Source: an uncultured Clostridia bacterium
GTDB lineage: Bacteria > Bacillota > Clostridia > Oscillospirales > CAG-272
Direction of reading: 5' to 3'
DNA length: 46,020 bases
Assembly (NCBI GenBank): GCA_904502015.1
Contig: CAJGEA010000002.1
Coordinates: forward strand, 1-46,020
This document shows positions 27,001-33,000 of this stretch, piece by piece. A program made the position numbers. Each line of letters begins with the position of its first letter. Position 1 is the stretch's first letter.

Positions 27001-30000
27001 TCCGCATTGACGGTGTCGTCAAGGCGGCGGACGAGGCTGTTCGCGTAAAGGTATATAAAAACGGCATCCCTACTACCTATGCCAAGCTCGCGGCGGACGG
27101 GACCCCCGAGCCGGGCACAACTCCCTTTGAGGGCGGAAAAAAGGTACTCTCGGAGCTTTCCGAGAACCTCGCCGCAGGGGAGACTACAAAGTATACGATT
27201 GTTATATGGTTGGAAGGAAATGATCCCGAATGTCTCGATAATATTAAGGGAGGAAGCGTGAAAATGTCGCTGATGTTTTCCGTGGTGGAGGATACCGAAA
27301 CCCAGTCCGAAACTTAATGTTTTCGAGATAGCAAATGCCTGACTGATCCAACTTCCAACCAATCCATATAACAATAGTAGAATAAAAACAAAACAGGAGG
27401 AAATTATGAACAAGAATCTCAGAAAAGCGATGATCTCTGCGATCTGCATGCTCATCGTTGGCGTTATGTCCCTGACCGGCGTAACCTACGCATGGTTCAC
27501 TCAGTCCGAGGAAGCCATCGTTTCGGGTATGGCGTTCAACGTTATGTCCCCCGCAGGCGGCGTTCTGATCTCTGACGAGGAGAACACCGGCTGGAGATAC
27601 TCCATCGAGCTGAATGACACCTTCAACGGCTTCGCTCCCACTTCCACCGCTCCCGCCAACATGAAGAACGGCGAGCTGGAGTTCTACAATGCAACGGTTG
27701 ACACTTCGGTTGCCGCTGCTGATCTGGGTAAGGTCATCACCACCAGCAAGGTTGGCGATGGCGCTTACTTCAAGAAGACCATTTACATGTACAACGACAA
27801 CACCGAGGCTGAGGTTTCCGTAAACCTGGCCGGTACCGTTATCGGTATCAACAGCGCTCTCGGCGAGACCGCTGTTGACAAGAAGGCTCAGACCGCTATG
27901 CGTCTGGCTCTCGTTAAGCACGGCGCTTACGAGATGAGTGCAGGTGCTACTCTGACCGCTGCCGACGCAGATGATGTTGTTATCTACGAGCCTTACGCAG
28001 ACACCCTGCTGGACGGCACCACCGGTCAGCAGAAGCGCGCTTACAGAGGTATCACCGGCGCATCCGCTACTCCCTTTGATTCCACCGCTGCTGACTGCCA
28101 GTATTCCGAGGCAGTTGATACGGTTGTTAACCTGACTGATATGGTCGTTACGGTTCCCGCAGGTCAGTGCTACGCCGTTACCGTTTACATCTGGCTCGAG
28201 GGTCAGGACCCCGACTGTGTCAACAAGATCGGTGGCACCAACCTGGCAGCAGAGCTGCACTTCGCCAAGGTTTCGTAATCATCACGTAACCATTTTCACA
28301 GCAATCCCATTGTGATCGATCGTCGATCATTTGTAACTTAACTATCATCGAGGCATAACACCGGTATTGGTGTCCCGGGCGGCCGCAAGGCCGTTCGGGA
28401 CACCGAAAAAGGAGAGAAAACACATGAAAAACGTACTCAAGAAAATAGGCAGTACTGCTTTGGACGTATTGATCGTCTTCATTTTCATTATATCCATTCT
28501 GGTCGTTATCGCCGGCATGAGCGCGCGCGGAGCAGACGGACAGGCAAACGTATTCGGATACGTGGCGTTCAGTGTCCAGACTGACTCTATGGAGCCCACC
28601 ATCAACACGGGCGATCTTATCATTGGTAAGATCCCCACATCAGCACATGATCTTCCCGAAGGTACCATCATATCCTTCCGCGAGAAGATGGGTGATCAGG
28701 TTGTCGTAAACACCCACCGTATCTACGAAGTAAATGACGCAGGCAGTATTACCAAGTACACCACGTGGGGTGATAACAGAGAAAGCTGTCCTGCCCCCGA
28801 CGCAACCCCCAAGACCGAGAACGAAGTCATTTCGGTCTATCAGTTCAAAATCCCCTTTGTGGGTGCATTCATTGACTTTATTCGCAAGCCCTTGGGCTTT
28901 ATCCTCATTCTGGTTCTCCCCTTGCTGGCGTTCATTGCATGGCAGGTATATAAGGTGATCGACCTTTACCTGAAGAGCAAGAAGCTCCAGATGCAGAAGG
29001 AGCTTCAAGGTGGAGGCAAGACCGACATTTCCGATGAGGAAAAGGATGCCATCATCCGCGAGTATCTTGCCAAAATGCAGCAGGAAGGGAAGAACGATCC
29101 CCCCTCCGGCGGCAATCCCGACGATTCCGACTAAAAAACCAACCTTCCTTTAAATTGAAAACAATGTCCCGAAGGGACCGCACATAAAAATAAACATGAA
29201 GAAAAGAGGCAAACATGGCTGCATACGTTGAATTCTTATACGAAATACTCAAACAGTTTTTCGGAGGCTTTTGGACCGTTATCACGGGCATCTTCCGCGG
29301 TCTGTTTGCTTTAGTGGACTTTCCGTCCTATATCCAAATCTTTGACGAGTTCAGCGGCGGTTTTACCGTCGTAGGATGGATTCTTGCCATCGTGACCGTT
29401 CTGGTTATCGTCGCCCTGCTCGTGTTCCTGATCGTTTTGCTGGTGGCGTTCATCCGCAAGAGAATTGAGAACCGCAAGAAGCTGCAAAATCAGCATATGC
29501 TGCTCTCCGAGATGGAAAAGCTGCACATGCAGGTGATTCGCCTGACCAAGGAAAAGGATCGCATTCTGGCCATCAAGGCGGGTGCCGACATGCCCCTCGG
29601 TGATCTTGAGGGCCTCGGAATTGGCGGTGAAGAGGAAGAGAGCGTCCTCCAGGAGGGCGAGAGTCGCTTCTTCAAGCTCACCCAGGTCGACCAGCAGTAC
29701 AAGGACTACGACCGTGATGCCGAGGTGTTCGACAACGAGATCACCCTCGAGGAGATCTGCGAGCAGTTCCGCAATTTCGCTTGCTCCCGCATGGGTCTGT
29801 TCTATGAGATCCGCGTAATCCGTCTGTTCCTCGCGGCATTCTCCTCCACCCGTCTGATCATCCTTCAGGGTATTTCGGGTACAGGTAAAACCTCTCTGCC
29901 TTACGCATGGGGTAAGTTCCTCGAGAACGATACCCACATCGCGTCGGTTCAGCCCTCCTGGCGTGACCGAAGCGAGCTCTATGGTTACTTCAACGAGTTT

Positions 30001-33000
30001 ACCAAGCGCTTCTCGGAAACCGAAACGCTCAAGCGTATGTACGAGGCTACGTACACCGATAAGATCTACCTGACCATCCTCGACGAGATGAACATCGCCC
30101 GCGTGGAGTACTACTTTGCGGAGATGCTCTCCATTCTTGAAATGCCCTCCCGCGACGAGTGGGTGGTTGACCTCGTTCCCAGCGGATGGCCGAATGACCC
30201 CAAGCACGTGATCAACGGTCGATTCAGACTTCCCGAGAATATGTGGTACGTCGGTACGGCAAACAACGATGACTCTACTTTTGCCATTTCGGATAAGGTA
30301 TATGACCGTGCGATTCCGATCAACATCAATACCAAGGGCGTGAAGTTCGACGCACCCTATACCGAGAATCTGCACATTTCCTATAAGCATATTGAGGATA
30401 TGTTCAATACGGCCAAGGAAGAGCATAAGGTCAGCGAGGAGTCCATTGAGAAGATCGCCAAGCTGGACGATTACGTCATTGAGCACTTCCGCCTGGCATT
30501 CGGTAACCGTATCGTTAAGCAGCTTCGCGACTTCGTTCCCGCCTACGTTGCGTGCGGCGGCACCGAGGTTGACGGCCTGGATTACGTCCTGACCAATAAG
30601 ATCTTCCGCAAGTTTGAGGCTCTCAACCTTGCATTCATCCGTGACGAGATCGATGGCCTGATCGCCTACCTGTCCGAGCTGTTCGGAGAGGAGAATATGC
30701 AGGAGGCCAAGGCATACCTGCTCAGACTCAAGAAGCTCGTCTGATTCACCTAAAAACATTAGTAGGAGTAAGTCAAAATGTCAAATGCAGAAATCAGTAA
30801 AATTGAAGATATTTACGGTCGTTTTGCTTGCGACTTTTTGACCGAGCTCCGATCGGATGAGTTTTACGGCTATTTTTTGAACGCCGTAAAGAGCGGAGAT
30901 CGCAGCGTTCTGCTTCATGAGCGATTCATCGATCGTGATATTGACGTGCGCTGGATTGAGATGATTGAGAATACCATCATTCCTCTCGATACCATCATCC
31001 GTACCCCTCAGCGATTCATCAAAAACGAGGAGGAGGTCGTTCCCATCGAGATGGTGCGGAACGTTACCACCGAGTCCATCCGCCACCTGGCTCAGCATAC
31101 CAACCTGATTGCCCGTGTGGAGGATGACGAGGTAACTCCCGAGCGTATGCTCAACATCCTCAAAGAGGAGAGCTTTGAAACCTACGAAAACCGCTTCCTT
31201 TACACCCTGCTCCAAAAGCTGGAGTACTTCCTCGACAAGCGTCTTCAGGCGCTGGTTTCCTCCAAAAAGTCACAGGATGTGTTTGAGCTGAAGCTGGACG
31301 GTACCTGCGAGGCGGGCCGCGATAAGATCGCGTACAACGTCGAGTTCTCCTACATGACCCCCCACGTGGAGCTTACCAAGGAGGATCTGAAGTACAACGT
31401 CGATACCTCGCGCATGACCAACATGCAGCGTATCGAGCGAATCCGTAAGATTCTTTACGATTTTAAGAGCTCTGCCCTTATCAAATCTCTTCACGGCTGT
31501 GCGCTTGTCCGTCCCCCTCTGAACATGACCAACGTGCTGACCAAGAACCAGAACTTCCGTAAGGCTGTAGACCTGTGGATGTTCATTGAGCAGTATGACG
31601 AGGCGGGCTACAGCGTGACCAGCGTTGAGCGTGATACCGTTCCCACCGATGCCTACATGGAGGAAATTTTCTCCCTCGTGGCATTACAGTACATTATTAT
31701 GAAGCGCAATTCGGGCAACCCCGAGGAGTATGTGGATTACTCCGAGCGCAAAACCGAGATCCTTCCCAATCTTATAAAGAAAGAAATCGACAAGCTTTTG
31801 GACAACTACGACTTGGAGATCGATGAGATCAAGCGAATTTTTGTGGATCGCGTCGAGAAGAAGCGTCGTAAGAAGTTCGCTCAGTTCGCCAAGATCCGTG
31901 ACGTGATCACCCGTGTGACCGCGCTTGAGGCAGAAACCCTGCAGAGAGCGGCAGAGAGCCGCAAGCCTCGCGCAGAGCGTCTGGCCAAGGAGATGGAACG
32001 CCGCGAAAAAGAAAAGCAGCGCTTGATCGAGCTTGAGAGAAAGCGCCGCGAGGCCGAGGAGCGGGAGCGTCTGCGCCGTGAGGCAGAAGAACAGGAACGT
32101 TTGCGTCTTGAGGCCGAGGAGCAGGAGCGTTTGCGTCTTGAGGCCGAGGAGCAGGAGCGTTTGCGTCTTGAAGCCGAGGAGCAGGAGCGTTTGCGTCTTG
32201 AAGCCGAGGAGCGGGAGCGTTTGCGTCTTGAAGCCGAGGAGCAGGAGCGTTTGCGTCTTGAAGCCGAGGAGCAGGAACGTCTACGTCTTGAAGCCGAGAA
32301 GCAGGAAAGATTGCGCCGTGAAGCCGAAGAGTGGGAGAGCATGCGTCTTGCGGCCGAGGAGCTGGAACGTCAGCGTCTTGCAGAAGAAGAGCTGGAACGT
32401 CAGCAGCTTGAGGCCGAGATACAGGAGCAGGAGCGCTTGAAGCAGGAGGCCAAGGCCGCCCGCCTCGCCAAGAGAGAGGCTCGTAGAAACGCCTTCAAGA
32501 ATTTCTTTGCCCGTAAGAAGACGAAGGCGGTAGAGCCCGCTCCCGCGGATGCACCCGAGGATACGCCCGCGGATACGCCCGCGGGCGAGCAAAAGGTTCT
32601 CAGCTCGGCTGAGATGTTCGGCGCGTCTACCACCCCGTTGGCTCAGCCTAAGAAGACGACCAAGAAGAAGAAGAAGAAGTCCAAGGGCTCGAACAATAGC
32701 AAGAAACGAAAGAGCAACGGCAAGACCAATCAGCGTAAGAGCCGCCGCCGTGCTCGCAGAAAGTAATGGGAGATACAAGTGAATAAACGAAAGATAAAGA
32801 TCGGCAAAAGCCTGATTTTTAAGGGAATGTTCGTCGTTTCTCTCCTCATCCTTATGGTTTCCATTTCCTACTCGTGGTTTGTTGAAAGCAATAAGGCCAC
32901 GACGTCGGGTGTCGGAATGAACGTTGCCGAGAACAGTAACCTTCTCATTCAGGGAGATAGCGGTGAGTGGCAGAAAAACCTGCACTTCGTCATCCCCGAA

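Follow-up and report, generated by a model that had tools for sequence, protein, structure and literature searches.

A membrane-anchored McrB-family GTPase linked to SipW-type signal peptidases and secreted proteins in an uncultured Clostridia bacterium

McrBC is a textbook restriction enzyme, and the locus described here raises the question of what a relative of its motor subunit does among genes for signal peptidases and secreted proteins. The locus lies on contig CAJGEA010000002.1 of an uncultured Clostridia bacterium (assembly GCA_904502015.1; Oscillospirales, CAG-272), of which a stretch of 46,020 nt was analysed. This whole stretch is called the window, and all coordinates refer to it. 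The gene in question (29215..30744, + strand, 509 aa from an ATG start) had been read in a first-pass annotation as an McrB-like NTPase tethered to the membrane, which either had been repurposed for fibre biogenesis or anchoring or belonged to a phage-defence module that had landed in the operon. By its motifs and profile matches the product is a membrane-anchored GTPase of the NxD branch of the McrB family, and on balance we consider it probable that it is an integral, non-restriction component of a SipW-linked surface-protein system.

The gene model appears sound. An AGAGG ribosome-binding site lies 7 nt 5' of the ATG and, since homologues from other genomes align over residues 1-509, the start codon is taken to be correct. 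The core motifs quoted in the first-pass annotation (GISGTGKTS, DKVYDRA and others) were all found in 29215-30744, and within the family they are invariant or nearly so in both a 30-sequence alignment and wider alignments. Walker A, GISGTGKTS (29869..29895, +; residues 219-227), is invariant in 30 homologues and aligns to GPPGVGKT of E. coli McrB, and Walker B, ILDEMN (30076..30093, +; residues 288-293), aligns to IIDEIN of the same protein. Over the 30 sequences I288, L289, D290, E291, M292 and N293 do not vary at all, and for D290 and N293 the same is true of the wider alignment. The McrB signature NNDD (residues 350-353), in which the sensor-1 Asn and the Asp of the NxD type are followed by a further D, and the arginine-finger region DKVYDRA (residues 360-366) together occupy 30262..30312 (+; residues 350-366), and N350, D352 and R365 are invariant in 36 diverse relatives. 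Since Walker A, Walker B (D290, E291), Asn350, Asp352 and Arg365 are invariant or nearly so, the GTPase should be catalytically active.

Significant PDB sequence matches (E < 0.01) were to E. coli McrB chains only (6hz4, 6ut6, 7vsr; E ~1e-6), with the single sequence as well as with the family profile as query, and no other AAA+ clade came out as a better match. An hhalign comparison of a profile of the 36 diverse relatives with E. coli McrB gave a probability of 97.1% and an E of 6e-11, with an alignment spanning Walker A to the arginine-finger region. Taken with the DUF2357 partner encoded downstream, these matches bear out the McrB-family identity proposed at first. The NCBIfam McrB model matched with an E of 3e-7 and 29 bits, its equivalog cut-off being 637, and a Pfam scan of the GTPase gave no match. 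Because the NCBIfam score is so far under the cut-off and Pfam is silent, the protein is best regarded as a divergent family member and not as an McrB orthologue. An exhaustive search of 1.84 billion cluster representatives returned 753 clusters at E <= 1e-30 to the GTPase, and among the best 150 representatives (50% clustering) the signature reads N-x-D-[DE]-S, with position 2 free, the D of position 3 invariant and position 4 sometimes Q, G or A. The NNDD of the window protein alone is compatible with both NxD and NxxD. Since in the family D is fixed at position 3 and position 4 varies, NxxD is excluded as the conserved pattern. Bell et al. (eLife 2024, PMC11090510) use the NxD variant to set apart one of the major branches among McrB GTPases, and as far as sequence can tell the window protein is an McrB-family P-loop NTPase of this branch with all catalytic motifs intact.

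The N-terminal part of the protein differs from that of a DNA-reading enzyme. Residues 1-195 are made up of hydrophobic helices, a transmembrane (TM) segment, a leucine zipper and an acidic linker, and a Pfam scan found no DNA-binding family in them. Two N-terminal TM helices had been claimed, of which one is certain by Kyte-Doolittle scanning (19-residue mean, customary cut-off 1.6). This helix (29362..29454, +; residues 50-80) reaches 19-residue means of up to 3.7 and is conserved in 81 close homologues (family mean 2.7), in which an acidic loop precedes it and a cluster of net charge +4 to +5 follows (+5 in the window protein). By the positive-inside rule, the cluster behind the TM helix and the acidic loop before it would place the C-terminal motor in the cytoplasm. 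The other claimed helix (29257..29316, +; residues ~15-34, or ~14-34), which begins with FFGGFW, is only a borderline TM segment: its peak of 1.56 stays under the cut-off, and over the 81 close homologues it is only moderately hydrophobic (mean 1.25, about residues 14-34). None of the 30 aligned sequences departs from F15, F27 or Y39, while F16, G17 and W20 are at least 90% conserved, and because aromatic and glycine positions are conserved there, this first helix is taken to be functional. Behind the certain TM helix, at 29455..29580 (+; residues 81-122), the annotated positive cluster RKRIENRKK (residues 81-89) is followed by a four-heptad leucine-zipper stalk. L96, L103 and L110 are invariant in the 30 sequences and fall with I117 on a single heptad register, and AlphaFold2 (AF2) models residues 52-122 as one unbroken helix (pLDDT ~68-82 across residues 40-110). 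The coiled-coil segment expected from the first reading is thereby confirmed, and the sequence supports the membrane tether, with one helix certain. In the predicted protein a membrane anchor and a short leucine-zipper stalk thus take the place of the DNA-reader domain.

Anchors of other kinds occur among the relatives of the GTPase. Many distant relatives have two clear TM helices and others have four, and a sister group of proteins of ~560-700 aa (P0288-P0300 and others) carries four N-terminal TM segments, with members at 1797-3563 of locus L082 and 1190-3034 of locus L085. One four-TM relative adjoins a Bac_transf sugar transferase gene and a DUF2357 gene; the neighbours of another are an ABC transporter and a gene with weak likeness to SipW. 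McrB-like GTPases anchored in the membrane may have a place in several systems of the envelope.

The GTPase gene is followed, after a gap of 33 nt and a TAGGAG ribosome-binding site, by the gene for an McrC-like partner of 662 aa (30778..32766, +). DUF2357 covers its residues 70-166 (nt 30985-31275; Pfam E 4e-11, above the Pfam cut-off), and DUF2357 is also the sole precomputed Pfam assignment on 106 of the best 120 partner homologues. The rest of the protein is laid out as a helical domain (~215-311), an E/R-rich helix (~348-590, ~210 aa of it E/R-rich), an Ala/Pro linker and a polybasic tail. An AF2 model of residues 1-401 (pLDDT 78) contains several long beta-hairpins, including 167-179/182-194, then the mainly helical region 215-311 and a long helix from residue 348 on. 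No nuclease family in Pfam matched the partner. Residues 196-345 were modelled mostly as helix with one strand, and therefore they do not appear to form a PD-(D/E)xK fold, nor do the residues that are invariant beyond D209 show a D...(D/E)xK pattern. It is from secondary structure and the missing motif that a nuclease is judged to be absent from the partner.

Beyond its N-terminal portion the partner varies widely. Across species its length ranges from ~370 to 1245 aa and conservation is limited to the N-terminal part (median 46% of the query length). In the window gene a 30-bp tandem repeat of 11-12 copies (32053..32418, +; TRF score 410-425, 83-85% matches) encodes AEEQERLRLE decapeptides, and residues 380-590 as a whole (31915-32547) contain 56% E+R+K, no Gly and 51 i/i+4 pairs of opposite charge. 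By composition an ER/K single alpha-helix describes this region no less well than a coiled coil does. The polybasic C-terminal tail (32629..32763, +) has 22 K/R and no D/E in its last 45 aa and is basic in most, not all, homologues.

Whether such a pair belongs to the genes around it was judged from other genomes. Relatives of the GTPase were found in at least 588 genomes in a scan with one genome per species, and the locus counts given here refer to the best 80 of these, in which the ORFs were searched with the window proteins. The best 80 GTPase homologues are 56-81% identical over their full length and come from Oscillospiraceae, Acutalibacteraceae, Ruminococcus, Christensenellales and Bacilli/Mycoplasmatota-type metagenome-assembled genomes (MAGs), mostly gut and rumen Firmicutes. 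An McrC-like gene is adjacent to the GTPase gene on the same strand in 75 of the 80 loci, about 4 of the 5 exceptions being contig ends. A SipW-type signal peptidase gene is likewise present in 75, T1, the secreted-type partner found most often with the GTPase, in 58, and a homologue of the HD-GYP/EAL gene that heads the window operon, in the same position, in 19. In Oscillospiraceae the genes are ordered as in the window; in Christensenellaceae the order is T1-GTPase-SipW-McrC-like-SipW, with a peptidase gene between the two McrBC genes. In taxa that differ at the level of family or class, the GTPase is found linked to SipW peptidases, one or two in number, and to proteins whose signal peptides are of the SipW type. 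Its median identity in these loci is 61% (minimum 56%), versus 25-38% for every neighbouring gene, so that no other gene of the cassette comes near it in conservation, and it is under strong purifying selection. At a locus of another arrangement (L083, 4692-12923), two McrB-like genes stand in tandem with a large ORF after each, of which only the first matched the McrC-like protein, and the tandem adjoins a giant LRR_5 protein and a GH3 glycosidase.

These loci bear directly on the second reading of the first-pass annotation, a defence system. On this account, an McrBC-derived sensor-effector at the membrane would provoke abortive infection or surface remodelling, with the secreted proteins as effectors. 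The nearest relatives by GTPase sequence are CoCoNuT-type systems, a predicted defence class, and plasmid-borne AAA+/DUF2357 pairs, and both the repeat-rich partner of variable length and the fast-evolving secreted neighbours resemble proteins in an arms race. The PADLOC candidate-defence model PDC-M26A matches the GTPase domain with 1e-34, which counts for defence and against a role in surface proteins, but only the GTPase domain, which is shared, is matched, and PADLOC found nothing for the partner. An identity of 56-81% over Oscillospiraceae, Ruminococcus, Christensenellales, Acutalibacteraceae and Bacilli-type MAGs is the pattern of a core gene, and synteny with SipW and secreted proteins is fixed. 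Outside the operon the window holds housekeeping and metabolic genes (shikimate pathway, gdh, polA, malQ, radA, deoB/PNP, ABC transporters), and within it no nuclease or other toxic effector domain was detected; in particular, at Pfam E <= 0.01, no nuclease, HEPN included, was found in ten products (SipWa, T1-T6, the McrB-like and McrC-like proteins, SipWb), and the HD-GYP/EAL and LRR products gave only these named domains at Pfam E <= 0.001. Plasmid and phage collections contained no full-length copy of the GTPase; their matches cover the GTPase domain only, at <40% identity, and the one plasmid match inspected (Deinococcus) is an 800-aa AAA protein adjoining a DUF2357 protein. Readings as a defence island or as a mobile element were rejected on the basis of the housekeeping flanks and of the plasmid and phage searches. 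The suspicion that homologues might lie consistently in defence islands and not with SipW came out otherwise, and the 80-locus context favours the repurposed motor over a defence module that landed in the operon. We therefore regard defence as very unlikely here.

The same loci speak to a third possibility, that the protein is a factor of cell division or envelope growth acting at the septum, its operon context being secondary. Bell et al. (PMC11090510) liken the N-terminal module to FtsB, its architecture of a TM helix and a four-heptad zipper was confirmed here, and PcdA of S. aureus is, according to the abstract of its report (PMC10602043), a precedent for the recruitment of an McrB-family protein to division. 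However, the N-terminal 188 aa gave no FtsB/DivIC match even at E <= 10 in a search with Pfam HMMs, whereas Bell et al. used HHpred, and on present sequence evidence the likeness to FtsB is one of architecture only. No division genes occur in the 80 loci, whereas genes for SipW and secreted proteins are constant, and the architecture of PcdA is a different one, since the abstract describes EVE domains and no TM segment. A primary role at the septum is hardly credible on these grounds.

The favoured reading, an integral component of a surface-protein system, leads to the operon itself. The GTPase and partner genes lie between two strong terminator-like hairpins, the only ones on the + strand between 24.7 and 44.3 kb. 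The first (24896..24923, +; 12-bp stem with 8 G-C pairs and a T-run) ends the upstream ABC-transporter genes and marks the 5' boundary, and the second (43317..43342, +; 11-bp stem with 8 G-C pairs and a T-run) marks the 3' boundary of the putative operon. The 13 genes between them are co-directional and look like one transcription unit, in which the order is HD-GYP/EAL, T1, T2, SipWa, GTPase, McrC-like, T3, T4, T5, T6, SipWb and LRR. The first gene (25156..26568, +) encodes an HD-GYP/HD and EAL protein of the c-di-GMP phosphodiesterase type (Pfam EAL 8e-34, HD_5 4e-10), and its stop overlaps the start of T1. Right after the second terminator stands a ComF-type gene (43379-44194; double zinc ribbon and phosphoribosyltransferase) with a promoter-like site of its own at 43362-43390.

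Both peptidases of the operon are of the SipW type (archaeal/ER-type signal peptidase I), with SMEP and TH[RE] motifs. SipWa (28367..29134, +), directly upstream of the GTPase as annotated at first, scored 89.1 bits with TIGR02228 (cut-off 51.85) and 3.6e-29 with the SipW model NF046067, and has two TM segments, the catalytic-serine motif SMEP and a cytoplasmic C-tail. Its ORF is listed from a TTG at 28367, but an in-frame ATG 18 codons on, at 28421 (MKNVLKK...), is probably the true start because it gives a better fit to the N-terminus of a signal peptidase. SipWb (36602..37177, +) scored 86.1 bits with TIGR02228 against the same cut-off and carries SMEP at residue 53. The tail of SipWa, whose peptide is DEEKDAIIREYLAKMQQ, contains the motif KDAIIREYL (nt 29042-29068; residues 226-234), which in the family takes the form K..[AI]I.EYL. 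Over 34,302 residues of SipW homologues 88 instances of this pattern were counted (63 of 126 proteins, 46 of the 80 loci), with up to four repeats in the tails of Acutalibacteraceae, and over 490,837 residues of the other ORFs of the same loci none. Judged by this distribution, the tail motif may serve the cytoplasmic GTPase complex as a docking peptide.

The secreted products share one type of signal peptide, ending in [ST][YF][AS]|W[FIL], where the bar marks the cleavage site; it is common to T2-T6 and to the LRR giant. T2 (27406..28278, +), a candidate fibre subunit, has the site TYA|WF and the C-terminal sequence WLEGQDPDC; A29, W30 and F31 are invariant in its family, and it scored 17.7 bits (E 0.003) with the cognate_SipW model TIGR04088, whose cut-off is 19 and which matched none of the remaining T proteins. 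Its secreted paralogues are T3 (32779..33705, +; SYS|WF, WLDGNDREC), T4 (33745..34920, +; TAA|WF, WLEGTDREA) and T5 (34917..35951, +; SYS|WI, WLEGEDPDC), and T1-T5, all paralogues of one another, have the C-terminal motif W[LIV][ED]GxDxx[CA] in common. In T1 itself (26565..27317, +; TM residues 26-58, C-terminal WLEGNDPEC) the [AS]|W[FIL] cleavage motif that T2-T6 share is missing and the cytoplasmic N-tail in front of the TM segment is longer, and the protein may stay in the membrane as a base or anchor subunit. T6 (35997..36602, +; TFS|WL) is a small secreted protein with the same signal-peptide type and homologues in 8 of the 80 loci. The last gene (37152..43196, +) encodes a BspA-type LRR surface protein of 2014 aa (Pfam LRR_5 1.2e-70), a candidate adhesin cargo or fibre tip, which was checked and has the site SFA|WF. 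A second large BspA-type LRR protein is encoded elsewhere in the window, at 1285-3876 on the - strand.

The T proteins had been taken for TasA-like neighbours, and the likeness is confined to the cleavage motif of their signal peptide. Their cleavage motif aligns to the GTWA|AFN site of TasA, the mature N-terminus of which was verified against PDB 8aur. Homology of sequence was not detectable and was rejected: an hhalign comparison of a T protein with TasA aligned 11 residues with a probability of 0.5%, and none of the best 120 T-protein homologues listed in a profile search of 5.8 billion proteins had a Pfam family recorded.

It is against the assignment of the GTPase to a surface fibre that the following points weigh. 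The mature domains of the T proteins have no homology to TasA or camelysin (Peptidase_M73) by Pfam or PDB profile, and since they lack detectable TasA, camelysin or Pfam homology the fibre is itself inferred; the T proteins as fibre subunits are a reasonable inference. To our knowledge, TasA-type fibres assemble extracellularly without a dedicated NTPase. The role of the GTPase is read from its gene context, and any mechanism would follow from analogy with McrBC. AF2 modelling of the full GTPase with the 30-sequence alignment gave a mean pLDDT of 63 and a badly modelled AAA+ core. With this poor model Foldseek found nothing significant in the PDB, its top two matches being McrB of T. gammatolerans (E 0.46-0.72), and the family assignment consequently relies on sequence and profile evidence. 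For the partner, hhalign of the McrC-like family with E. coli McrC was not significant, a PDB profile search with that family returned only low-complexity matches to the E/R-rich region, and Foldseek of the model (pLDDT 78) against the PDB found no nuclease, no McrC and nothing at E < 0.06, a silence that is weak evidence because the model is elongated. Finally, when metagenome contigs were searched with a T1 profile built from a 12-sequence alignment, 26 of 30 loci had no McrB-like or SipW gene within 10 kb of the T1-like gene; in all 30 the contig runs on for at least 4.5 kb downstream of this gene, and only some extend 10 kb on both sides. In those human-gut contigs T1-, T2- and T3-like genes occur together, with products 37-42% identical to T1 (L105, L109, L127, L139, L146, L150, L151 and others). 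A strict two-way linkage of T proteins and McrB-like GTPase was therefore rejected, and the synteny of the GTPase is strict one way only. Either the machinery of the T-only loci is encoded elsewhere in the genome, or T proteins do not always need it.

The T-only loci are also what would be expected if the pair were a modulator instead of an obligatory machine. As a regulatory switch, the tethered GTPase ring and its partner would form a nucleotide-dependent checkpoint gating SipW, secretion or the expression of matrix genes in response, for example, to c-di-GMP or the state of the envelope, with no mechanical work on the fibre. Genes related to c-di-GMP do head the clusters: the HD-GYP/EAL gene in the window and in 19 of the 80 loci and, as a second such link, a PilZ-domain gene immediately upstream of the T1-like gene in L127. 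The element under regulation could be the motif conserved in the cytoplasmic tail of SipW; in B. subtilis the cytoplasmic C-tail of SipW functions in signalling, independently of the peptidase activity. On the other hand, hexameric AAA+ proteins whose pore is plugged by a partner are typically mechanical enzymes. A simple switch would not usually require conservation as strong as that seen over the entire 360-aa motor and lid, and Pfam recognised no sensor domain in GTPase or partner. A switch of this kind is in our opinion unlikely, and within the favoured reading of an integral surface-protein component, motor and regulatory switch are not separable.

Under that favoured reading, a working model can be proposed. 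The gene would encode the GTPase subunit of a system of the CoCoPALM type, a class discussed below, in which an McrBC pair was removed from restriction and built into a SipW-dependent operon for surface fibres or adhesins. As in McrBC, six GTPase subunits would form a ring; their six anchors and zipper stalks would tie it to the membrane from the cytoplasmic side, and the DUF2357 hairpin domain of the partner would enter or plug the pore of the ring and stimulate GTP hydrolysis. The charged helix of the partner (~30 nm if fully helical) and its basic tail could act as a spacer, or as an anchor to the membrane or the nucleoid. Conformational work driven by GTP might be linked to processing, release, polymerisation, anchoring or secretion of the T proteins and the LRR adhesin, perhaps by way of the motif conserved in the cytoplasmic tail of SipW, and c-di-GMP might exert control through the HD-GYP/EAL gene that heads the operon. 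The system would not cut nucleic acid.

In its most specific form, which we put forward tentatively and hold to be possible though doubtful, the McrB-like ring and a nuclease-free McrC-like plug are the cytoplasmic GTP-driven engine or anchor of an undescribed Gram-positive surface filament. This filament would consist of SipW-processed T subunits with the LRR adhesin at its tip or decorating it, and the coupling would run through the SipW tail motif. If this were true, hundreds of gut Clostridia and related species would possess a new NTP-powered assembly pathway for pili or fibres, to be set beside sortase pili, type IV pili and TasA-type fibres, and the locus would clearly exemplify how a motor from restriction can become machinery of the envelope. 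Should a SipW-dependent fibre be powered or gated by the GTPase, this would be a new route by which surface filaments or adhesins are assembled in commensals that are abundant but poorly studied (Christensenellaceae, Ruminococcus, Oscillospiraceae), and there would be a concrete system in which to follow how defence motors are recruited to functions of the cell envelope. What is found here is an McrBC-type motor with no DNA reader and no detectable nuclease, bound by prediction to the membrane and under very strong purifying selection in at least 588 species-level genomes.

Among known systems, McrBC of E. coli and Thermococcus (PDB 6hz4, 6ut6, 7vsr) shares with the window pair the AAA+ GTPase core with Walker A and B, the Asn/Asp signature and the arginine finger, as well as the two-gene unit with an McrC-type partner, which in McrBC binds the pore. 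In contrast to McrBC, the window GTPase has a membrane anchor in place of the N-terminal DNA-binding domain and is of the NxD and not the NxxD type, and its partner has no detectable PD-(D/E)xK nuclease. Because neither a DNA reader nor a nuclease was detected, the window system does not qualify as a restriction enzyme. A McrB relative that has left restriction for a process of the cell envelope is also seen in PcdA of S. aureus, which was recruited to the selection of the division plane and acts with FtsZ and DivIVA; unlike the window protein it keeps EVE reader domains, and by the abstract of its report it has neither a TM segment nor an McrC-like partner (PMC10602043).

The setting of the window pair resembles the matrix-fibre operons tapA-sipW-tasA of B. 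subtilis and sipW-bsaA of C. perfringens, in which a SipW-type peptidase is likewise encoded with its substrates, among them several paralogous secreted subunits. The cleavage pattern is also alike (small residue, aromatic, A/S, then an aromatic residue after the cut), with GGGTWA|AFND in TasA and TYA|WF here. The difference lies in the T proteins, which have no detectable sequence similarity to TasA beyond the cleavage site, and in the motor, since we know of no NTPase in either of these operons.

CoCoNuTs (CnuB/CnuC) are close to the window pair in sequence. They belong to the same NxD branch, and residues 148-507 of the window GTPase are ~40% identical to proteins of 700-800 aa devoid of TM segments. 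Both systems have a DUF2357 partner, coiled coils on both subunits and, in CoCoNuTs often, a lost McrC nuclease. However, CoCoNuTs have long soluble coiled coils and the window protein a TM anchor; they are found in defence contexts and on plasmids, and according to Bell et al. they are always encoded with HEPN or other nucleases (PMC11090510), whereas none of the products of the window operon matches a nuclease. Since an associated nuclease is missing and a TM anchor is present, the window system is not a CoCoNuT.

The best counterpart is the CoCoPALM class, named by Bell et al. in one paragraph and deferred to a later publication, without characterisation (PMC11090510). As described there, it comprises a GTPase fused to an FtsB-like module of TM helix and coiled coil, with coiled coils on McrB and McrC homologues alike. 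The supplementary files of that paper contain no searchable text on CoCoPALM, and a literature search found no later paper on it. The window locus agrees with the description in its NxD McrB GTPase with an N-terminal TM and coiled-coil module, in its DUF2357 McrC homologue with a long helical extension (here maybe a single alpha-helix and not a true coiled coil), and in the constant link to genes of the signal-peptidase family, two of them of the SipW type in the window. Only the published FtsB homology was not reproduced with Pfam HMMs; otherwise nothing contradicts the description. Because all defining features except the FtsB homology were derived again here, we assign the window gene to this named class. 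The category is thus already published, while its anatomy and function had not gone beyond that one paragraph. To it the present analysis adds the SipW/archaeal type of the peptidases, the T family and its motifs, the LRR adhesin, the c-di-GMP genes, the SipW tail motif and the contrast in conservation between the GTPase and its neighbours.

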